From positions 14,555-38,554 of the forward strand of contig JANYDL010000034.1 of the NCBI GenBank assembly GCA_025363635.1: DNA of 24,000 nucleotides, in the 5' to 3' direction. The DNA comes from Actinomycetes bacterium. GTDB lineage: Bacteria; Actinomycetota; Actinomycetes; Nanopelagicales; Nanopelagicaceae. The notes under the pieces were generated by a model, which worked only from the letters and a program-made list of their open reading frames with translations, was not told where the DNA came from and searched no databases. A program made the translations under genes and the position numbers. This document shows positions 4,673 through 24,000 of this stretch, in pieces. Positions within the stretch are counted from its first letter, which is position 1, and the number at the start of each line of letters is the position of its first letter.

Positions 4673-6754
4673 GTGAGTAAAGCAAATGCGAGTGCACAAC
4701 CTGCTGAGGTGAGTTATACCGCCAAGGATTTAGCTGTACTTGAAGGCTTGGATGCCGTCCGCAAACGACCTGGAATGTATATCGGTTCGACGGATTCTCG
4801 AGGATTACTGCACTGTCTTTGGGAAATAATCGACAATGCAGTGGACGAGGCGCTCGCAGGATTTTGCAAGAAGATTGATATCAATCTTGAAGCAGACGGC
4901 TCGGTGGAGGTGCACGATGATGGTCGAGGAATCCCCGTAGATAAGGAGCCAAAGACTGGGTTAACCGGCGTTGAGGTCGTGTTGACGAAATTGCATGCCG
5001 GTGGAAAATTCGGTGGCGGATCTTATGCAGCATCCGGAGGACTTCACGGGGTCGGTGCTTCAGTTGTAAATGCTCTAGCATCTCGCCTCGATGCAGAGGT
5101 CGATAGAGATGGCAAAATTTATTGGATGTCGTTTCAACGAGGCGTGGCAGGTATTTTTGATGGGGATGGTCCTCGAGCACCTTTTACGCCCACTTCAGGT
5201 CTTCGCAAGATTGGAACTGTTCCGAGAAAAGTGACCGGCACACGTATTAAATGGTGGAGCGATAAACAGATTTTTCTCAAAGAGGCAGAACTCGAACTCG
5301 AAGAAATTTATGCTCGCGCCCGTCAAACATCCTATCTCGTGCCGGGATTGACTTTGATAGTTAACGATAATCGCGACAAAGTCAGAACGTCAGAGACTTT
5401 TTATCATAAGGGTGGGATTTCCGAGTACTGCACATTCTTGCAACCTGATGAACCCATTGGGGATGTCATTCGGCTCAGCGGTGGTGGACATTATTCAGAG
5501 ACCGTTCCAGTTCTTGATGAGCAAGGCCACATGGTCTCGACTGAGGTAGAGCGAGATATGGGCGTTGACATTGCCATGAAATGGGGGAATGGATTCGAAA
5601 CGACAAATCGATCCTTCGTCAACATAATTGCGACCCCCAAGGGGGGCACCCATATGCAGGGATTTGAACGGGCGATCACGAAAGCATTCAATGAAGTTTT
5701 ACGATCGACAAAAACTCTGAAGAATAATGAAGCCGATGTTGTTAAGGATGACATTATGGAAGGGCTCACCGCTGTTATTACAGTGCGAATGTCAGAGCCA
5801 CAATTTGAGGGACAAACAAAGGAAGTTTTAGGAACTGCTGCGGCTACTCGCATCGTTGCTTCTGTTATTTCGGATGAAATGAAGGCGTTTTTTTCTACGA
5901 CAAAGAGGATTGATAAAGCTAACGGTCGCCTAATATTGGAAAAAGTAGTGGCGGCCTCGCGCACTCGAATCTCCGCCCGCGCCCATAAAGATCTGCAGCG
6001 TCGCAAGAATGCTTTAGAGAGTTCTTCTTTGCCGACGAAATTGTCGGATTGTCGCTCCGAGGATGTTTCCCGAACCGAACTCTTTATCGTTGAGGGAGAA
6101 TCTGCGTTAGGCACAACAAAAGCGGCAAGAAACTCAGAATTTCAAGCGATATTGCCTATTCGCGGGAAGATTCTAAATGTCCAGAAGGCCTCGCTTTCCC
6201 AAATGTTAGATAACACAGAATGTGCTTCGATCATTCAGGTGATCGGCGCTGGTTCAGGTCGTTCCTTCGAATTAGACGAGGCCCGCTATGGGCGAATAAT
6301 TCTCATGTCTGATGCCGACGTCGATGGGGCTCACATTCGCTGCCTCCTTCTGACTCTTCTCTATCGTTATATGCGTCCTCTCATTGATGCTGGTCGGGTA
6401 TTTGCGGCCATCCCACCTTTGCATCGAATAGAAGTAACAGGTTCTGGTGGCAAAAAAGGCGATTTCTACTACACCTATTCCGATGAGGAAATGCGAAAAG
6501 TCTTAGGAGATCTTGCCAAAGCAGGTAAGAAGTGGAAAGAACCCCTACAGCGATATAAGGGCCTCGGTGAGATGGATGCAGATCAATTGCGTGAGACCAC
6601 TATGGATCCAGATCATCGGACGCTGCGTCGTGTCACCGTGAATGATGCCGCGGCAGCAGATTCGATGTTTGAATTATTAATGGGAAATGAAGTTGCTCCA
6701 AGGAAGGACTTCATCACGACAGCAGAGATCGATCGTGATCGAATCGACGCTTAA
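4673..6754 (+). CDS. parE: Type IIA topoisomerase ATPase subunit, ParE-like (topoisomerase IV subunit B / GyrB paralogue)
   Basis: GHKL ATPase and Toprim motifs are present: LEGLDAVRKRPGMYIGSTDSRGLLHCLWEIIDNAVDEA, GGLHGVGASVVNALS, EGESALGTTKAARNSEFQAILPIRGKILNV, and MSDADVDGAHIRCLLLTLLYRYMRPLI. The EG(D/E)SALGT variant and the location next to hrdB fit the actinobacterial ParE clade rather than gyrB. The start is uncertain. GTG 4673 gives an N-terminus of normal length, whereas the track TTG 4559 adds 38 Cys/Ser-rich residues. Confidence 0.85.
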   Translation: MSKANASAQPAEVSYTAKDLAVLEGLDAVRKRPGMYIGSTDSRGLLHCLWEIIDNAVDEALAGFCKKIDINLEADGSVEVHDDGRGIPVDKEPKTGLTGVEVVLTKLHAGGKFGGGSYAASGGLHGVGASVVNALASRLDAEVDRDGKIYWMSFQRGVAGIFDGDGPRAPFTPTSGLRKIGTVPRKVTGTRIKWWSDKQIFLKEAELELEEIYARARQTSYLVPGLTLIVNDNRDKVRTSETFYHKGGISEYCTFLQPDEPIGDVIRLSGGGHYSETVPVLDEQGHMVSTEVERDMGVDIAMKWGNGFETTNRSFVNIIATPKGGTHMQGFERAITKAFNEVLRSTKTLKNNEADVVKDDIMEGLTAVITVRMSEPQFEGQTKEVLGTAAATRIVASVISDEMKAFFSTTKRIDKANGRLILEKVVAASRTRISARAHKDLQRRKNALESSSLPTKLSDCRSEDVSRTELFIVEGESALGTTKAARNSEFQAILPIRGKILNVQKASLSQMLDNTECASIIQVIGAGSGRSFELDEARYGRIILMSDADVDGAHIRCLLLTLLYRYMRPLIDAGRVFAAIPPLHRIEVTGSGGKKGDFYYTYSDEEMRKVLGDLAKAGKKWKEPLQRYKGLGEMDADQLRETTMDPDHRTLRRVTVNDAAAADSMFELLMGNEVAPRKDFITTAEIDRDRIDA

Positions 6755-7470
6755 ACTAAATTCTTTATACCTTGAGAGAGAAATAGATCTCGGTAACGCT
6801 GTAGATCTTGGGAATTCGCCGGCGACCATGAGCGCGCCGTGGCTCGGACGCCATGAGTCATAAATGCATTTATCTTGACTCTCATATCAGTATCAATTGC
6901 TAGCAGAAAGCGCGCCGTTGATATCAGATCTTCATCGGAGTCATTTTGTGATGGAACGAGCAGGAGGCGGACTTCGAACAACTTATTTATGGAAGCAAGA
7001 AACTTGATCGAGTCCAAAACTTGTTTGTTTGAATTTCCAGTCAATTCGAAATGTTTTTCATCATCAAGGACTTTCAGATCCAACATCACCCCATCAGTCA
7101 CAGGGGCAAGTGAACGCCATACATCTTCAGGGGCGTTACCATTGCTATCTATGAACGTCGTTAGATGTTGGAGATCTGGAGTTGTTTTTATGGCCTGGAA
7201 AAGTTCCGAAATGAATTCATATTGCATAGTGGCCTCGCCACCCGAGATGGTGACACCTGAAATGTAAGGCATAGACGCGCGAATTTTGAGGAGAAGATCT
7301 TCGACTGAATAAAGTGTTGCTCGCGGAGTCTGAAGTGGAATTGTTTGAGGATTGTGACATGCTAAACAGTTGAAATTGCATCCTTGAAGGAAGAGAACAA
7401 ATCTATTGCCGGGTCCATCTACCCAAGAAAATGAAATAACATCAGCTACCAGCGCGTGGTGAGCTTTCAT
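6751..7470 (-). CDS. Glycyl-radical enzyme activating protein (radical SAM, PflA/YjjW-like)
   Basis: The N-terminal SFSWVDGPGNRFVLFLQGCNFNCLACHNP combines the activase DGPG.R...F..GC block with the CxxxCxxC cluster. GGEA serves as the SAM-binding motif. At 239 aa it has no ferredoxin insert. Its stop overlaps the convergent parE stop within TTAA (6751-6754). Confidence 0.85.
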   Translation of the reverse strand: MKAHHALVADVISFSWVDGPGNRFVLFLQGCNFNCLACHNPQTIPLQTPRATLYSVEDLLLKIRASMPYISGVTISGGEATMQYEFISELFQAIKTTPDLQHLTTFIDSNGNAPEDVWRSLAPVTDGVMLDLKVLDDEKHFELTGNSNKQVLDSIKFLASINKLFEVRLLLVPSQNDSDEDLISTARFLLAIDTDMRVKINAFMTHGVRATARSWSPANSQDLQRYRDLFLSQGIKNLV

Positions 7471-8980
7471 GGCTCATGACCCGCTTTACTTGACGTTGAT
7501 CTACATGGGAGTCGGCGACCGAGCCCGCCCCTAAATACGTACTCCCATGTCGGGCGCTGGGCATTTTAGCTAAATCAGATTTTCGCACAAGGTAGCCCGT
7601 TATTCGGATGAAGTCGTTGCTATCTAGATTAAAAGTAAAATCGCGCATCCCATTTGCGAAGGCACCACGAATTATGTCAACGACGGCTTCAGGATTTTTC
7701 ACTGCGGTTTCGTCGAAGGAGAGAATGTCGCTTATCCCAGCAGCAAAAAGGTGATGATGGCGACTCACCGTGCGAAGATGTTCGATTAGTGGCGGTTCCG
7801 TGCCGATAGGGATGCGAGTACCTGCCGTCACGCCAAGGTCAAGATCAATGCCTGATTGAGAATGCAGAAAGGCTCTCCCCGCATTTCCGTCGCAATAAGG
7901 CATGGGTCGACTGGCAACGATTTGAGCGATCGTTGACGTGATTCTGTATCCCAAATCATCGGCAATGGAACTGTGCCCGTAGGTGCCTTCTAAACCTTCT
8001 CGTCGCATTAAAATATTGACCGCTTCTGCGAGACCGAAGATGCCGAACATGGCTGAAAATTTATCTAGAGTAAGCAATCCTTCTTTTACCAGCCAATTCG
8101 AAGTATAGAAGTTAGATTCTTCGACCAAGAATCGAATGCGCGCTTCCATGAGTTCGGAAGTTAATTCCAGGTAATGTGGCAACGTTTCCGCAAAGAATTT
8201 CTCTACTCCTCCTTCGCCAGCAAGAACAGTTTCTTTCAAATTTATCCGCACCAAAGTATGCGATCCTCCGCCGATCTTGAGAGAGTTGTAACAACTTACC
8301 GCCGCATAATCAGGTCCTAGATTACTTTTCATCATCACGTCATTGATGAAGTGAGGCTTGCCGCAAGCAAAGACAGTCTGGACGGCATCTAAAACATATT
8401 CATCACTTGTTACATGAGGATCTACTTTGAGGCTTATGTTCGGTACAACCTGCAAAAGTTCGCGCTCTAAAGCAAGAATCGTCTTCGCGACGCGATTGTA
8501 AACGGGGCTGAGATTTGTATGAGCAAAGGCATCAGGAAACATGCGATCAAGAGATATCCAAAAACGCTTTAATTTGGTGTACAGATCAGCATCACTCACA
8601 TCGTTGATGTACGGGAGGAGCAGTGTGTCTAAATCTCCGAAGTACACTGGATAACCAGTAATGGAGGGAGTCTGAGAATAAATAATTAGAAGAAAAGCGA
8701 GAGCGTCATCGATATTCGCTGCTGGAGGAAGCTCCAGAAAGAGAGAACCTTCCCGCAGAGTCCTTGCATAATCAGGCAGCAGATAGCGTGGACGATAGGG
8801 AGCGCTTCCTTCAAACATGTCGCAGATGATTCTTTTTTCCAGAGCCTGCGCGCACTCGTCGCTTATGTGGGGTGGCTCGAGAAGGTTTTCGGCCAAAGTT
8901 GCCAGACCTGCCACTCGTTGCCGATAGGTGTATTTGGGGTCGGTCACCATCGCGCGAATTTGAGGCAAGGTTGGAAACAT
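7442..8980 (-). CDS. Glycyl-radical enzyme of unknown function, YjjI family (DUF3029)-like
   Basis: The protein is 512 aa. It has a C-terminal glycyl-radical fingerprint (FIRITGYLVRKSDL, the RxxGY type), a candidate thiyl Cys in AAVSCYNSLKIGGGSHTLVRINL, and a size typical of the short YjjI-type enzymes. It lies immediately upstream of, and overlaps by 29 nt, a glycyl-radical activase. The start is set at ATG 8980 (MFPTLPQ), 13 nt after AGGAG. The track ORF start at 9166 would overlap parC. Confidence 0.7.
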   Translation of the reverse strand: MFPTLPQIRAMVTDPKYTYRQRVAGLATLAENLLEPPHISDECAQALEKRIICDMFEGSAPYRPRYLLPDYARTLREGSLFLELPPAANIDDALAFLLIIYSQTPSITGYPVYFGDLDTLLLPYINDVSDADLYTKLKRFWISLDRMFPDAFAHTNLSPVYNRVAKTILALERELLQVVPNISLKVDPHVTSDEYVLDAVQTVFACGKPHFINDVMMKSNLGPDYAAVSCYNSLKIGGGSHTLVRINLKETVLAGEGGVEKFFAETLPHYLELTSELMEARIRFLVEESNFYTSNWLVKEGLLTLDKFSAMFGIFGLAEAVNILMRREGLEGTYGHSSIADDLGYRITSTIAQIVASRPMPYCDGNAGRAFLHSQSGIDLDLGVTAGTRIPIGTEPPLIEHLRTVSRHHHLFAAGISDILSFDETAVKNPEAVVDIIRGAFANGMRDFTFNLDSNDFIRITGYLVRKSDLAKMPSARHGSTYLGAGSVADSHVDQRQVKRVMSHESSPRAGS

Positions 8981-9008
8981 GATTGAAAGGGTACTCCTGG
9001 TTTTGCTT

Positions 9009-10529
9009 TTAGATTGCTTCCAGGATTGTCGTTTTTCGAGGGGAAGCGAAGGATTTCCCAACGGCGGTGAGCTCGTCGCTGACCTGCTTGCGAATATTCG
9101 CCTCAGATTTGAGCAATGTGGTGAGATTGGCAATTGTGGTTGAGAGTTCTTTTTGTTCACCTTCAAGTTCTAGTTTGGACATTTTGGTGAGTCGTCGCAA
9201 TGGCATATCTAGAATGTAGGTGGCTTGCTCTTCGTTGAGCTTGAAACTCTTCATTAACGCTTCTTTTGCCACGGCGGCATCATCACTACTTCGAATAATC
9301 TTGATGACTTTATCGATATCGATGATTGCCTTGAGCAGGCCATCAACGAGAGTTAAGCGGCCCGTGGCTTTGGCTCTTCTAAATTCAGATCGCCTTTTCA
9401 CCACTTCAATTCTGTGAGAGATAAATACTTGCAGCAACTCTTTAAGTCCTAAAGTTTGCGGCCTTCCATTTACCAGTGCGACAGCATTAATGGAGAACGT
9501 ATCTTCCATTGGAGTGAGCTTGAACAATTGTTCTAATACTGCCTCTGGTTCAAACCCATTCTTTAGCTCGATAACAACGTTTGTTCCGGTTCTACCGTCG
9601 GTGAGGTCGATGATGTCTGAGATTCCTGTAATCTTCTTTGCTTTCGCGAGATCAGCAATTCTCTCCACAACTTTTTCTGGACCGATTGTGAAAGGCAATT
9701 CCTTTATAGTTATACCCATTTTGCGAGAGGTAACTTTTCCAATTTCGACTCTCGCACGCACCTTGAAGCTTCCCTTTCCGGTTGCGTAGGCATCGCGCAC
9801 TCCCTCAACGCCCACGAGTTGACCACCAGTGGGAAAATCGGGACCAGGGACAAATTTCATAAGCTGTTTCAAAGTCGCATTGGGGTTTTCAATGAGAAAT
9901 TTGGTCGCTGCAATTACTTCGCCAAGGTTATGGGGCGCCATATTGGTCGCCATACCCACAGCAATTCCCGAACCGCCATTAACGAGCAAATTTGGGTAAG
10001 CCGCTGGCAGTACTAAAGGTTCAAGCAACTGCCCATCGTAGTTGGACCCAAAATCAACGGTGTTTTCGTCGGCTTCCGCAACCATCGCCATCGCTGAGAG
10101 TGCCAGTCTGGCTTCGGTGTAGCGCATCGCCGCCGGTCCAGCATCGAGAGAACCAAAATTCCCATGTCCATCGATAAGGGGGAGTCGCATCGAGAAGGAT
10201 TGCGCCATTCGTACGAGGGCGTCATAGATGGCTCCATCCCCGTGAGGATGCAACTTACCCATGACTTCTCCAACGACTCGAGCGCTTTTCACATGGCCTC
10301 GTTCAGGACGAAGTCCCATATCTGCCATCTGATGAAGAATCCGGCGATGGACGGGTTTTAGTCCGTCTCTGGCATCGGGGAGCGCCCTGGAATAGATGAC
10401 CGAATATGCGTATTCAAGAAAAGAGCCAGACATTTCTGAGGCAACGTCGATATCGACTATTTTTCCTGGGTATTCACCAGGTTTTGGTCCAATTGCTTTC
10501 TTGCCTTTTGTTACACGTGGAGTCGCCAT
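9009..10529 (-). CDS. parC: Type IIA topoisomerase DNA breakage-reunion subunit, ParC-like (GyrA paralogue), lacking the C-terminal beta-pinwheel domain
   Basis: Conserved blocks are FLEYAYSVIYSRALPDARDGLKPVHRRILHQM, GKLHPHGDGAIYDALVRMAQ.FS and the catalytic Tyr in GPAAMRYTEARL. The tower and coiled-coil reach ILDMPLRRLTK...LEGEQKEL. The ORF stops after SPRKTTILEAI (506 aa). In full-length ParC/GyrA of about 750-850 aa, that is where the C-terminal domain begins. Confidence 0.85.
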   Translation of the reverse strand: MATPRVTKGKKAIGPKPGEYPGKIVDIDVASEMSGSFLEYAYSVIYSRALPDARDGLKPVHRRILHQMADMGLRPERGHVKSARVVGEVMGKLHPHGDGAIYDALVRMAQSFSMRLPLIDGHGNFGSLDAGPAAMRYTEARLALSAMAMVAEADENTVDFGSNYDGQLLEPLVLPAAYPNLLVNGGSGIAVGMATNMAPHNLGEVIAATKFLIENPNATLKQLMKFVPGPDFPTGGQLVGVEGVRDAYATGKGSFKVRARVEIGKVTSRKMGITIKELPFTIGPEKVVERIADLAKAKKITGISDIIDLTDGRTGTNVVIELKNGFEPEAVLEQLFKLTPMEDTFSINAVALVNGRPQTLGLKELLQVFISHRIEVVKRRSEFRRAKATGRLTLVDGLLKAIIDIDKVIKIIRSSDDAAVAKEALMKSFKLNEEQATYILDMPLRRLTKMSKLELEGEQKELSTTIANLTTLLKSEANIRKQVSDELTAVGKSFASPRKTTILEAI

Positions 10530-16457: not shown

Positions 16458-16892
16458 ATGAACGTGCTTGATGCGGTAGACGCTGCTTCGCTTCGAACGG
16501 ATATCCCAACTTTCCGTGCAGGAGATGAACTCAAGGTGCATGTGCGCGTTATCGAGGGTAATAAGAGCCGTATTCAGGTATTTCAGGGCATCATCATTCG
16601 ACGTCAGGGCGATGGCGTGCGCGAGACCTTCACGATTCGTAAAGTTTCTTATGGCGTAGGGGTTGAACGTACTTTCCCAGTGCACACGCCCGTGATCGAG
16701 AAACTCGAAGTAGTTCGTCAAGGGGATGTACGTCGTGCCAAGTTGTACTACCTCCGCGATTTGCGTGGAAAGGCTGCCAAGATTCGCGAAAAGCGTGGAG
16801 CAGCCGAAGCGGCAGGCAAGGGCGGCTCAGCCTTATCGGCCCCCGCTGTCGAAACTGCAGTTGAGGCCGATGTACCTGCCGAGCTGGCTTAA
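16458..16892 (+). CDS. rplS: 50S ribosomal protein L19
   Basis: [61 protein letters not shown] is canonical L19. About 30 Ala/Glu-rich extra residues sit at the C-terminus. The SD GAGGA lies 7 nt upstream. Confidence 0.97.
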
Positions 16893-21042: not shown

Positions 21043-21960
21043 ATGACTGATTTCCGCTCGGGCTTCGTTGCTATTGTGGGACGACCGAATACGGGAAAAT
21101 CCACTCTTGTTAATGCTCTAGTGGGCAACAAAGTTGTGATTACCTCTCCTCATCCAAACACCACGAGGCGCGCGATTCGCGGGATCCTTAACGGCGCAAG
21201 TTTTCAAGCAGTATTGGTTGATACCCCGGGAATCCATAAGCCAAAGACTTTATTGGGCCATCGCCTCAATGCAGTTGTGGGGGAGAGCATGGAATCGGTG
21301 GACATCATCATGATGTGCCTTCCTGCTGATGAGGCATCTAGCGCGGGTGATCAATTTATTGCTCAAGAAATCGCAAAGCATCTACGAGCAAAAAAGTTCG
21401 CGGTAATCACAAAGACGGATTTGGTGAGCAAATCGGAGTTGGCTGCTCGATTATCTGGAATTGTCGCTCTGGCGCAAAATTTCTCATGGGACGAGATTGT
21501 GCCCGTTTCTGCTTCCATCCACGATCAAGTGGATTTATTGTCACAACTGATTAGCGCAAGCCTTCCAAATGGACCAGAGTTTTATCCTCAAGGAATGTTG
21601 AGTGATCAAAATGAAGAAGAATGGATATGCGAACTTATACGCGAGGCGGCGTTAAGGGATGTACGTCAAGAGCTGCCCCATTCAATTGCTGTGACAATCG
21701 ATGAAATGTCCCAAAGAGATGCCACTGGCCCGCGCCCTTTTTATGACATACATGCAACAATTCATATAGAAAGAGATTCTCAACGTGGAATTCTTCTCGG
21801 GTACCAAGGTCAACAGCTAAAAGATATTGGTACACGTGCTCGTTCCGATATTGAGAGAATTCTCAAAGCACGAGTTTTCTTGGGTTTACATATAAAAGTT
21901 TCTAAAGATTGGCAGAAGAATACGAAATTATTAGAGAAACTCGGTTACGGAGAAAACTAG
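21043..21960 (+). CDS. era: GTPase Era
   Basis: MTDFRSGFVAIVGRPNTGKSTLVNALVG (G1), DTPG (G3) and TKTD (G4) are present, plus a C-terminal KH domain. The MT(D/E)F.SGF N-terminus matches actinobacterial Era, so ATG 21043 is preferred over GTG 21028. Confidence 0.95.
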   Translation: MTDFRSGFVAIVGRPNTGKSTLVNALVGNKVVITSPHPNTTRRAIRGILNGASFQAVLVDTPGIHKPKTLLGHRLNAVVGESMESVDIIMMCLPADEASSAGDQFIAQEIAKHLRAKKFAVITKTDLVSKSELAARLSGIVALAQNFSWDEIVPVSASIHDQVDLLSQLISASLPNGPEFYPQGMLSDQNEEEWICELIREAALRDVRQELPHSIAVTIDEMSQRDATGPRPFYDIHATIHIERDSQRGILLGYQGQQLKDIGTRARSDIERILKARVFLGLHIKVSKDWQKNTKLLEKLGYGEN

Positions 21961-21968
21961 GACCAGAA

Positions 21969-22571
21969 TTATTGACAAGTTATATTTTGGGTAGGGGATT
22001 TATTAGATGCGGAGTTGCCACTCATGGCTCTTCCCACGACAACTCGACTCACTTTTTGAGTGACTTGGTTGTAGTTTGCATCAAGAGCTTCTCGAATAGG
22101 AGCCGGTGCACTTGATTTGAGGGCTGCAAAATCAGAACCGTTAGTGATTGCTTGGAAACTTATCGAATTAGACCCCGGTTGAATCCAGACCGCGGAAGAA
22201 AATCCAGTGCATGTGAGTGAATCTTTTGTGGAAGTACTTAAATCTAGTTTGTGCATTGCGCTACACGTGAACCACGTATACAGACCGTGCGCACCAGAAC
22301 GGACCCCTTGTCCTAATAAAGTGGAGACGCAATAAAGAACGCCCGATGAGGATCCGAAGTTAGATTGCCAGTTTTTGCTCAGTTGCAATTCCGCTGTAAC
22401 AGATTGCATGTAGGAAGAAATTTGAAGTTGTGAAAAATGTCCCGTGGTTGCGTCACCGGAGGCGATCGTTGACCCCTGTGTTAGGAGCGTTGCCGCGAGT
22501 ACGAGGGCGAAACGGGAGATAAATCGTCGGGGGTGAGAGGATGACCGAAGACGAAGATGCCTCAAATCCAT
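21969..22571 (-). CDS. Secreted hypothetical protein with five Cys, no recognisable domain
   Basis: This is the only long ORF here. Its N-terminus, MDLRHLRLRSSSHPRRFISRFALVLAATLLTQGSTIASG, has a twin-arginine-like RRF motif, a hydrophobic core and an A-x-G/A-S-G cleavage-like site. The start is uncertain: ATG 22571, or TTG 22595 as in the track. I found no homology I can name. Confidence 0.55.
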   Translation of the reverse strand: MDLRHLRLRSSSHPRRFISRFALVLAATLLTQGSTIASGDATTGHFSQLQISSYMQSVTAELQLSKNWQSNFGSSSGVLYCVSTLLGQGVRSGAHGLYTWFTCSAMHKLDLSTSTKDSLTCTGFSSAVWIQPGSNSISFQAITNGSDFAALKSSAPAPIREALDANYNQVTQKVSRVVVGRAMSGNSASNKSPTQNITCQ

Positions 22572-22655
22572 TATCTGCACCACTTCCCCTATCAATTCGC
22601 TTACCGCCAGTTACCGCCGTGGCGCGGTCACTGCCTCACACGTAGAAAAAGCGAC

Positions 22656-22802
22656 TTAGCCGCAGCACCCTTGAGCGCCAGGAATCAGGTAATTTTGGAC
22701 AAAACCTGTTTTCGTTGTGGATCGTCGCGTTGTGGCCGCATCTGCTGGCGCTACTGTTAGCGCCAAAAATAAGCCTGTTAGGGTAAGAGCAATTAACTTC
22801 AC
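22656..22802 (-). CDS. Unlisted 48-codon ORF encoding a Sec-signal small secreted peptide (candidate propeptide)
   Basis: The ORF is below the track size cut-off. GTG 22802 lies 5 nt downstream of a perfect AGGAGG (22808-22813) and has an in-frame TAG four codons upstream. The translation is MKLIALTLTGLFLALTVAPADA/ATTRRSTTKTGFVQNYLIPGAQGCCG. That gives a charged N-region, a 15-residue hydrophobic core, an A-x-A (ADA) cleavage site, and a predicted 26-aa mature part ending GCCG. Confidence 0.5.
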   Translation of the reverse strand: MKLIALTLTGLFLALTVAPADAATTRRSTTKTGFVQNYLIPGAQGCCG

Positions 22803-22816
22803 GAAGTCCTCCTAAT

Positions 22817-22852
22817 GTCTTTACGTTCGGGGTCTTTACTATTTGTAAAGGA
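22817..22852. promoter_or_regulatory. Triplicated CTTTAC-core motif in the divergent promoter region; candidate operator
   Basis: GTCTTTAC occurs at 22817-22824 and again at 22832-22839. An inverted copy GTAAAGGA lies at 22845-22852. Copies 2 and 3 form CTTTAC-N5-GTAAAG. The element sits between the divergent small ORF (start 22802) and the XRE gene (start 22894). It overlaps a possible TTACTA-N17-TAACAT promoter for the XRE gene. Confidence 0.35.
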
Positions 22853-22893
22853 TAGTAGTAACATATAGCAAGATCTTGAGAAAGGGAAGCCCT

Positions 22894-24000
22894 ATGGAAT
22901 TTGGCACCAGGCTCCGGGAGTTACGGGAGAAGGTTGGACTTACCCAAGCTGAACTAGCCGAGGGGATCGCTGCCTCGAGTTACATCTCCCTTCTCGAATC
23001 TGGCAAACGCCAACCCCAAGCGGAGATGGTTGCAAAGTTCGCAGAACGGCTAGGAGTCGATAGTGAAACCCTTTCCGTAGATCAAGATGCCCAAGTCGTT
23101 TCGCTCAATCTAAATTCTGCAAAGGTTGCCTTAAGTTCTGGCGACTTGGGACTTGCTCGCGATTATGCCTCGCAAGTGATTGCCGCTTCTGTATTTCATG
23201 ATTCCTCATGGTTAGCCGCATCTGTGATTTTATTGCAGGTCAAATCTCGTGAAGGAAATTTTGAAGGCGTCCTGGATGAATTAGAACAATTGTTTAGAGT
23301 TAACGCCGACACTTCGCCAGAGTTGATGGCTCGAATCGGTAACGAAATTATTCGTGTGTGTTTTAGATCCGGAAATCTAGGCATGGGTGTACAACGCGGA
23401 GAAGAGTTGTTACGCGATTATGCGAGCGCATGGGCTGAGACTGAAGTTGTTGAACTCATGTGTCAGTTGGGTAATTGTCATTTTCATCGCGGAGACACTC
23501 CCCGAGCAATGGAAGTTGTGCGTCGTGCACTTGAACTGGCAGAGAAATGTCGTTCGCCAAAAGCAATGGTGCAGTCTTATTGGCAGTCATCAGTTCTAGC
23601 GGAGAGCCAAGGCAATTTAACTCTGGCACTAAGCCAAATAAATAACGCGATTTATTGGACAAAGTTGGCCGAACTTCATCAAGTTCTACCGATCCTCAAC
23701 GACAATGCTTCTAAGTGGATGTTGGATCTTCCAAATCCTGATCTTGAGAAGATTCACAGTTTGGCAGAAGCGGCTTATTTGGATCTTGCTTCGCAAAACA
23801 ATCCGACGAGCGCGGCATATACATGTATCACTCTCTCTGAAGTTGAATTACGACAAGGTAAGTTGGAAAGCGCCTTGATGTATGTGCGTAAAGGCCTTGC
23901 CGAACTTCCTGCAGGAGTTCCCGGACCGCGCACTAGCCTTATGTCGCAAAAAGCAAAAGTCCTTTTCCGCATGGGCAAAATCGAAGAGTCAAAGTCACAA
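22894..24000 (+). CDS. XRE-family helix-turn-helix transcriptional regulator with a long helical TPR-like C-terminal region; 3' end outside the window
   Basis: This ORF is not in the ORF track because it never reaches a stop. I translated it by hand: ATG 22894, preceded by AAAGGGAAG, is open for 369 codons to the window edge. The N-terminus MEFGTRLRELREKVGLTQAELAEGIAASSYISLLESGKRQPQAEMVAKFAERLGV is a textbook HTH_3/XRE domain. The remaining 300+ residues are repeated amphipathic helix pairs (for example ALELAEKCRSPKAMVQSYWQSSVLAESQGNLTLALSQINNAIYW and TLSEVELRQGKLESALMYVRKGL), consistent with TPR-like repeats. Confidence 0.8.
   Translation, partial: MEFGTRLRELREKVGLTQAELAEGIAASSYISLLESGKRQPQAEMVAKFAERLGVDSETLSVDQDAQVVSLNLNSAKVALSSGDLGLARDYASQVIAASVFHDSSWLAASVILLQVKSREGNFEGVLDELEQLFRVNADTSPELMARIGNEIIRVCFRSGNLGMGVQRGEELLRDYASAWAETEVVELMCQLGNCHFHRGDTPRAMEVVRRALELAEKCRSPKAMVQSYWQSSVLAESQGNLTLALSQINNAIYWTKLAELHQVLPILNDNASKWMLDLPNPDLEKIHSLAEAAYLDLASQNNPTSAAYTCITLSEVELRQGKLESALMYVRKGLAELPAGVPGPRTSLMSQKAKVLFRMGKIEESKSQ

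Follow-up and report, generated by a model that had tools for sequence, protein, structure and literature searches.

A secreted-propeptide gene paired with an XRE–TPR regulator: a candidate RRNPP-like signalling module in Actinomycetota

Do Actinomycetota signal with secreted peptides and cytoplasmic receptors in the manner of the RRNPP systems of Firmicutes? The question is raised by the right end of a 24,000-nucleotide (nt) stretch of Nanopelagicaceae DNA, which as a whole we call the window. There, a gene for an XRE-type helix-turn-helix (HTH) regulator with a tetratricopeptide repeat (TPR)-like C-terminal region stands back to back with a 48-codon open reading frame (ORF), close to the gene of a secreted Cys-containing protein (p208) and on either side of a repeated promoter motif. 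A preliminary description of this DNA had singled out these four elements, all of which exist, and had read them as RRNPP-like. That interpretation is now supported, short of proof, by the pairing of regulator and small ORF in 27 of 27 related loci, by the dN/dS of the small ORF, by a TPR model of the regulator and by further pairs in distant homologues. We consider it probable that the regulator and the small ORF form a two-gene peptide–receptor module built like the RRNPP systems of Firmicutes. The genes, their conservation and pairing, the predicted fold and the putative operator are described directly below; from them, we infer the signalling steps.

The small ORF is a real gene. It starts with GTG, 4 nt past the Shine–Dalgarno (SD) sequence AGGAGGA, and its orthologues carry GGAGG (GGGAG in one clade) 4–8 nt before their own GTG. 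In within-clade pairs at a synonymous divergence (pS) of 0.3–0.6, the ratio of nonsynonymous to synonymous change (dN/dS) was 0.07–0.3, with 0.12 for L004 versus L008, marking it as a protein-coding gene under purifying selection. The N-terminus combines a lysine at position 2 with a hydrophobic core (Kyte–Doolittle value of 2.3 over 12 amino acids, aa) and the sequence APADA/A. Orthologues (35 sequences) share a basic residue at position 2–3, a core with Kyte–Doolittle values of 2.2–3.4 per 10 aa and the AxA site; the signal peptide was called by these rule-based checks and their conservation. The SD seen in the preliminary description is thus borne out, and its signal peptide agrees with these rules. 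The orthologues measure 38–58 aa, with repeat-expanded forms of up to 91 aa, and the corresponding database family comprises 30 Nanopelagicaceae/Planktophila proteins, none with a Pfam domain.

The anatomy of the peptide was read from a 24-sequence alignment and the 30 database members. A basic position 2–3 and the hydrophobic core are followed by a P-A-x-A site, a pro-region variable in both length and sequence, and a C-terminal core. Within this core, G and CC never vary and IP hardly ever does, the usual form being IPG-xxx-CC; in one clade, the peptide ends in GGG-x-W-CC plus a tail of 2–5 residues. Within one clade of 13 sequences, mean pairwise identity was 0.85 in the signal peptide, 0.50 over the final 8 residues of the pro-region and 1.00 in IPG plus CC. 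The three residues enclosed by IPG and CC were the most variable in the peptide (identity 0.26; 9 variants). A fixed frame around hypervariable C-terminal residues is the pattern expected of a specificity-bearing mature signal and recalls PapR, Phr and AimP.

Some CC-propeptides (P0136, P0139–P0150) reach 57–91 aa owing to tandem repeats in the pro-region—(PDRSEKADRED)n or (PAQAANPDL)n—or to a partial duplication of the core (SIGGGIVMTTQSIGGGIWCC), and they keep the C-terminal GGGIWCC unchanged. Intragenic duplications have been reported for Phr propeptides and resemble these repeats. Downstream of the peptide stop codon, a stem-loop of differing sequence recurs at the same place in most loci. 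As a terminator of the peptide gene it was rejected: the stem-loop of the window (22608–22633) is no more stable than shuffled sequences (z = -1.36) and has no U-tract.

We next turn to the partnership of the two genes. Related loci were collected from one-genome-per-species contigs (n = 19) and metagenomes (n = 18), and those with a regulator at least 59% identical to that of the window and at least 240 nt of upstream DNA were counted (27, including the window). In each of the 27, a divergent small ORF with GTG and SD lies 65–95 nt upstream of the regulator, the spacer in the window being 91 bp. The preliminary description had staked its reading on amino-acid conservation of the small ORF beside orthologous regulators, and the dN/dS range given above, together with its presence in every one of these loci, is what was found. 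The regulators themselves have many homologues of 432–434 aa and 59–94% identity which, where named, belong to Nanopelagicaceae, Planktophila or an ‘Actinomycetota bacterium’.

Two observations on regulator homologues stand apart. HTH-less relatives, 50–55% identical, occur in L020–L022 and L037–L041 (L020 keeps a degenerate HTH remnant) in another context, composed of tetR, a clgR-like HTH gene, cinA and pgsA; they represent decayed copies or else HTH-less derivatives resembling Rap. In L014 (5286–5490), the last ~30 nt of the regulator gene (caattctgggatctaagctctgata) recur twice more downstream, around a masked run of N, reflecting either a tandem duplication or an assembly artefact.

Pairing extends far beyond close relatives. 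An exhaustive profile search with the regulator returned 1135 representatives at E ≤ 1e-10, mostly of 440–470 aa and aligned end to end. We looked at the gene surroundings of eight distant full-length homologues (E 1e-96 to 3e-33; 42–72% GC). In seven, the regulator gene adjoins, across 50–142 bp, an ORF whose product has a signal-peptide-like N-terminus and carries CC at its C-terminal end or close to it. The two genes are divergent in L044 (P0256; 61% GC; C-terminus GVQGCC) and L048 (P0265; 42% GC; SDRGCC). The peptide gene is co-directional and downstream in L045 (P0257; 61% GC; PIPPCC) and L047 (P0261; 63% GC; GGMPCC). The arrangement is convergent in L049 (P0269; 70% GC; DHNWCC), in L050 (P0300; 72% GC; AGGCCVPEGSR) and in L023 from Kitasatospora sp. 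LaBMicrA B282 (P0119; peptide MRRLSTVMLSVLTMFAVATGVATGPALAQGRTHGPAVHATADQKQTADFPACC), where the regulator is 28% identical to that of the window and the CC peptide is annotated as a hypothetical protein. The co-occurrence that the preliminary description proposed to look for in relatives holds in these seven distant homologues too, despite gene rearrangement. The two genes have stayed neighbours across a 30-point shift in GC and in three different orientations, which points to a functional two-gene unit. In a uniform scan of all 321.5 kb of DNA collected, 35 of 36 signal-peptide CC ORFs lay beside a regulator and one elsewhere.

The Kitasatospora pair (JBNQTI010000148.1, 60–7332) has YcaO and TfuA genes at one flank and NDK-like, PhyH-like and methyltransferase genes at the other, the CC peptide being encoded downstream of YcaO–TfuA on their strand; the surroundings look like a cluster for a thioamide-type ribosomally synthesized and post-translationally modified peptide (RiPP). 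As to a phage origin, tblastn against phages gave just a 28% match, on an unverified high-GC contig without a signal-peptide ORF, and a BFVD fold search retrieved only generic giant-virus TPR proteins. With no close phage homologue in either search, this origin was rejected.

What kind of protein is the regulator? The window holds its first 369 codons; in full, as read from contig L042 (GCA_043762805.1; 100% identical to 21969–24000), it has 433 aa. Pfam places a Cro/C1-type HTH of the XRE family at the N-terminus (HTH_31, 6.7e-12, and HTH_3, 2.3e-11, at aa 2–58; HTH_19 likewise above cut-off) and finds repeats behind it (TPR_2, 33.4 bits against a cut-off of 27; TPR_12, 33.6 against 30.1; TPR_14 and TPR_8 also above cut-off), as the preliminary description had read from the sequence. 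An AlphaFold2 (AF2) model built on a 74-sequence alignment is confident (pLDDT 90.6; pTM 0.78) and consists of 5 HTH helices (residues 1–60) followed by 18 antiparallel helices, or ~9 TPR-like pairs, in agreement with the superhelix proposed for the C-terminal region. A profile search of PDB sequences identified PlcR as the sole natural protein whose alignment runs unbroken from the HTH into the first repeats (E 2.3e-8; query 2–226); the C-terminal repeats matched designed TPRs and OGT, and the matches to PrgX and ComR were confined to the HTH. When the model was compared with PDB structures using Foldseek, the best bacterial matches were RapJ–PhrC (TMt 0.66–0.68), apo-NprR (0.64) and PlcR–PapR7–DNA (0.63), with phi3T Rap and RapI likewise among the top matches. 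A thiol or metal bridge from the peptide CC to receptor C195-H196-x-H198 (CHFH) was considered and discarded, the motif not being conserved in distant CC-associated receptors.

The shared promoter region harbors a putative operator. GTCTTTAC occurs at 22817 and 22832, with an inverted GTAAAG at 22845–22850. By chance, the window should contain 0.00 exact copies of the palindrome CTTTAC-N5-GTAAAG (22834–22850). Every related locus has it with no more than one mismatch, 43–45 nt ahead of the regulator ATG or, in two loci, 60 nt. The copy of GTCTTTAC at 22817 is a direct repeat of 22832–22839, derived from a 15-bp duplication that is missing from all other aligned loci, including the nearest relatives L001 and L024. 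The triplicated motif of the preliminary description thus resolves into one conserved palindrome; three copies are indeed present, but the third is a local, lineage-specific duplication. All loci share, 8 nt to the right of the palindrome, a TAAnnT block that by the loose actinobacterial TANNNT rule may serve as a -10 element; a scan for sigma-70 consensus promoters found no site. On the TANNNT reading, the putative operator would span about -37 to -21 of the regulator promoter and about +4 to +20 of a leftward peptide promoter with TATGTT as its -10. Such overlap with predicted core promoters suggests repression.

Similar sites were seen elsewhere. In L047, where the peptide gene follows the regulator, it is preceded at 21 nt by a related palindrome (TGTTAC-N4-GTAACA), and L046 keeps CTTTAC-N5-GTAA upstream of its regulator homologue. 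A second module of palindrome and TAAGAT—CTTTAC-N5-GTAAAG, 6–8 nt, TGTAAGATA—is found just 3′ of the regulator (L014 5580–6132, L013 5375, L016 5392, L035 3925) and precedes the gene of a 150-aa membrane-anchored Cys protein without a Pfam domain. This protein has no similarity to p208, ruling it out as a p208 homologue, and judging from its upstream sequence is likely an additional regulator target in the Planktophila-labelled clade. Within the window, a one-mismatch operator copy (CTTCACGATTCGTAAAG, the variant used in the Planktophila-type clade) sits inside rplS (16628–16644); with an estimated ~0.1 such sites expected by chance, it is probably fortuitous.

Table 1 Positions of the features at the right end of the window.
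Feature	Position	Strand	Remark
era	21028–21960		gene order: era, p208, small ORF, regulator
p208/p200, exported Cys protein of unknown function	21969–22571	minus	200 aa; 208 aa from upstream TTG
GC-rich stem-loop, possible attenuator or terminator before p208	22608–22633	minus	23 nt past peptide stop
Propeptide gene, 48 aa: MKLIALTLTGLFLALTVAPADA/ATTRRSTTKTGFVQNYLIPGAQGCCG	22656–22802	minus	orthologue in 27/27 loci
Codons of conserved C-terminal core IPGAQGCCG, candidate mature signal	22659–22685	minus	G and CC invariant
SD AGGAGGA of small ORF	22807–22813	minus	GGAGG/GGGAG kept in orthologues
Extra half-site GTCTTTAC	22817–22824	plus	15-bp duplication, lineage-specific
17-bp palindromic putative operator CTTTAC-TATTT-GTAAAG	22834–22850	unstranded	at most 1 mismatch in every related locus
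Predicted -10 TAACAT (TANNNT type) of regulator promoter	22859–22864	plus	conserved TAAnnT block
Candidate -10 TATGTT for peptide gene, overlapping complement of TAACAT	22860–22865	minus	inferred
XRE-HTH and TPR regulator, 5′ 369 codons; candidate cytoplasmic peptide receptor	22894–24000	plus	Pfam, AF2

The order of genes from era to the regulator (Table 1) is kept in at least 12 related genomes, and GC content is level across the window. The synteny break after era and the accessory DNA surmised in the preliminary description do not hold up, the locus being core and syntenic; an accessory island is ruled out by the same two observations. An Rfam search of 21900–24000 returned no RNA family. 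The remaining window genes are of the housekeeping type (sigma factor, gyrB/parE-like, rplS, lepB, rnhB, dprA, era). Far from the pair, at 6751–10529 on the minus strand, a topoisomerase IV/gyrase subunit-A-like ORF is just 506 aa long and seems to lack a C-terminal domain. It shares ~150 nt with an ORF for a YjjI-like glycyl-radical enzyme (574 aa), which is followed by the gene of its radical-SAM activase. The neighbourhood is unusual; the shared stretch may stem from a wrongly chosen start codon in the ORF list.

Inspection of p208 placed it outside the pair. A public genome annotates the ORF as a protein of 200 aa (P0151), and its hydrophobic N-terminus, four invariant Cys and the motifs GLYTWFTCSxxH and CTGFSSxVWIxP confirm the secreted Cys-containing protein of the preliminary description. 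At least 105 homologues were found, all of Nanopelagicaceae type and none with a Pfam domain. In L012, L013, L014, L016 and L017, p208 is missing, and regulator and peptide are retained; it is a lineage-specific, dispensable neighbour of the core module, possibly co-regulated with the pair. The AF2 model of p208 (pLDDT 70.7) had no PDB fold match at E < 0.1, just a faint NTF2/cystatin-like resemblance. A role as processing protease or modifying enzyme was rejected, with no Pfam, NCBIfam or PDB sequence match and absence from several loci, as was a twin-arginine (Tat) signal (RRF in the window copy), which is not conserved in homologues.

How might the pair signal? In the module that we favor, the precursor would be exported by Sec and cut after AxA by signal peptidase I, and the variable pro-region would be trimmed extracellularly. 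A short, CC-containing C-terminal fragment would then enter the cell through an ABC importer for oligopeptides; peptide/nickel transporters are reported from Nanopelagicales, as is oppABCDF from Planktophila (PMC12817590). Inside the cell, the peptide would bind the concave TPR face and alter the occupancy of the palindrome by a regulator dimer. With the operator lying across the predicted core promoters of the two genes, repression relieved by the peptide would be the most plausible logic, leading to autoinduction, although activation is also conceivable. The three residues between PG and CC would set signal specificity.

Several points weigh against this reading. Beside the regulator of L036 (53% identical) there is no CC-peptide, nor do the HTH-less homologues have a CC-peptide gene. 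In L046 (1402–2000; regulator 28% identical), the divergent gene encodes a 172-aa lipoprotein-like ORF (lipobox LTTAC) instead. The promoter positions, and hence the sign of regulation, derive from the loose TANNNT rule. Comparison with RRNPP folds, as proposed in the preliminary description, bore out Rap, NprR and PlcR as the best bacterial matches but did not set them apart, with generic TPR proteins (designed CTPR, OGT, LGN) reaching comparable Foldseek E-values; the modelled fold is compatible with RRNPP receptors and on its own is no proof of one. Among the most divergent receptors, the residues that stay invariant are structural TPR positions only, and no conserved CC-binding site is visible. 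Finally, quorum sensing has no obvious use for dilute planktonic cells.

Some of these points fit a different account, in which the CC peptide is an output: the regulator would sense another cue and control a secreted thiol, metal, redox or antimicrobial peptide that is neither re-imported nor bound. We regard this as the strongest rival, albeit an unlikely one. The operator sits in the promoter region of the peptide gene, which is probably a target; two adjacent Cys suit metal or redox chemistry; other exported Cys proteins are encoded nearby or co-controlled (p208, and the 150-aa protein behind the second operator of L014); and CC recognition is explained by no conserved receptor residue. 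Yet the regulator–peptide pair is the only unit conserved from Nanopelagicaceae to Kitasatospora, unaccompanied by export, immunity or uptake genes, and adjacency through three orientations is rare for an ordinary regulator–target relation. Hypervariable residues in an invariant frame moreover resemble ligand-specificity positions, and the receptor architecture is of the peptide-binding RRNPP type.

Alternatively, the small ORF could encode a RiPP-like precursor with crosslinked, thioamidated or lipidated Cys, the regulator being cluster-situated. The Kitasatospora locus would suit this idea, since its CC-peptide gene comes immediately after YcaO and TfuA and has PhyH-like and methyltransferase genes close by; so would the stem-loop after the precursor gene, a feature of many RiPP operons. 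We nonetheless deem it improbable: YcaO and TfuA adjoin the pair in the Kitasatospora locus only, no modifying enzyme is conserved beside it in the window or the 27 related loci, and p208 is dispensable and lacks an enzyme-like match. Besides, the peptide has a predicted Sec-type signal and an AxA site, and no RiPP leader. A RiPP would be compatible with peptide–receptor signalling if the signal were a modified peptide. A last reading, in which the small ORF arose by chance or encodes an uncleaved membrane anchor unlinked to the regulator, could appeal to its missing annotation in the source genome and the absence of its exact sequence from the protein collection. It has next to nothing left in its favor, with purifying selection, SD and GTG, the AxA site and the C-terminal motif kept in 35 loci, and a background of one such ORF in 321 kb; a chance ORF is excluded.

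Returning to the peptide–receptor module, how far might it reach? We hold it an even bet that Actinomycetota own a widespread RRNPP-type family—a Sec-exported propeptide, a pheromone ending in Cys–Cys and an XRE–TPR receptor—that ranges from Nanopelagicaceae to Streptomycetaceae and would be the first case outside Bacillota of genetically encoded peptide quorum sensing through a cytoplasmic receptor. In such a family, the Cys–Cys end could also make the signal responsive to redox state or metals. The main surveys treat RRNPP as a Firmicutes trait, searching Firmicutes only or making no mention of Actinobacteria (PMC10075063, PMC9765709, PMC12700828), and the RRNPP_detector survey covered Firmicutes genomes only (PMC10075063). 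Actinobacterial quorum sensing is described in RRNPP surveys as small-molecule based; beyond that statement, we found no prior description of actinobacterial RRNPP in the literature searched. If true, a conserved receptor–propeptide pair in Actinomycetota would carry this mode of signalling into a second major phylum and add a new pheromone chemotype, the C-terminal Cys–Cys. It would prompt one to ask how a secreted peptide signal benefits dilute, genome-streamlined plankton—Nanopelagicaceae/Planktophila being among the most abundant freshwater bacterioplankton—and provide a handle on gene regulation in Streptomycetaceae, where one pair adjoins a YcaO–TfuA cluster. The hypothesis is directly testable, as Planktophila cultures and a Kitasatospora isolate exist and the candidate peptides are short enough for synthesis.

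How, then, does the pair compare with known systems? RRNPP_detector defines a five-part signature, namely a propeptide of 10–100 aa, Sec export, a receptor of 250–500 aa, TPRs, and the two genes as neighbours at -60 to 400 bp (PMC10075063). Here, the propeptide has 48 aa and the receptor 433 aa with TPRs, the genes lie 91 bp apart (76–94 bp in relatives), and Sec export is called by rule only. The hosts are Nanopelagicaceae/Planktophila-type metagenome-assembled genomes and Kitasatospora, none of them Bacillota.

NprR–NprX and PlcR–PapR of the Bacillus cereus group come closest. They share with our pair the N-terminal XRE HTH and TPR superhelix of a cytoplasmic receptor, a ~45-aa propeptide encoded beside it (here with a predicted Sec-type signal) and a palindromic operator. 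NprR is in the size range of the 433-aa, ~9-repeat regulator (the crystallised NprR chain, 5dbk, has 355 residues), and in PapR, as here, the conserved, active-looking part is the extreme C-terminus. In contrast, NprR and PlcR belong to Bacillota, and the sequence kinship of the actinobacterial regulator with them is at the profile level only (E about 1e-8). Moreover, they activate, whereas an operator over predicted core promoters suggests repression here, and the genes in the window are divergent. The PG-xxx-CC motif has no counterpart among known pheromones.

The divergent orientation, listed as a caveat in the preliminary description, loses its weight on comparison with Rgg/SHP: the shp1358/rgg1358 pair is likewise divergently transcribed (PMC4324310). 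In Rgg/SHP and PrgX/cCF10–iCF10, regulator and peptide genes diverge from a shared control region, as in the window. Rgg3 and PrgX are repressors relieved by peptide, which fits the operator geometry described above. SHP and PrgQ peptides have no Sec signal and exit via PptAB (PMC10075063). Unlike these, our precursor has a predicted classical signal peptide with AxA, and the repeat domain gives canonical TPR matches in Pfam.

Rap–Phr provides the highest TM-scores of the regulator model (RapJ–PhrC, RapI, phi3T Rap), but Rap proteins are without an HTH and act on proteins, whereas the regulator has an HTH. The CC peptide resembles the short C-terminal peptides of the Phr and AimP families, in which variable residues within a constant frame confer specificity. 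AimR–AimP (arbitrium) is phage-borne, in contrast to the chromosomal, syntenic locus among housekeeping genes.

There remain the actinobacterial HTH/TPR regulators without a known peptide ligand. The regulator bears a weak Pfam/NCBIfam likeness to TPR_MalT, NsdA and the AfsR TPR region, all under the family cut-offs: NsdA scores 21.7 bits against a cut-off of 75, and TPR_MalT (PF17874), covering 75 residues, 35.6 against 45. It has no NB-ARC/ATPase domain and, unlike the MalT, AfsR and NsdA types, comes with a co-conserved secreted peptide gene. Taken together, we propose that the pair works like an RRNPP system and represents a new family-level variant, without claiming it as an RRNPP member.

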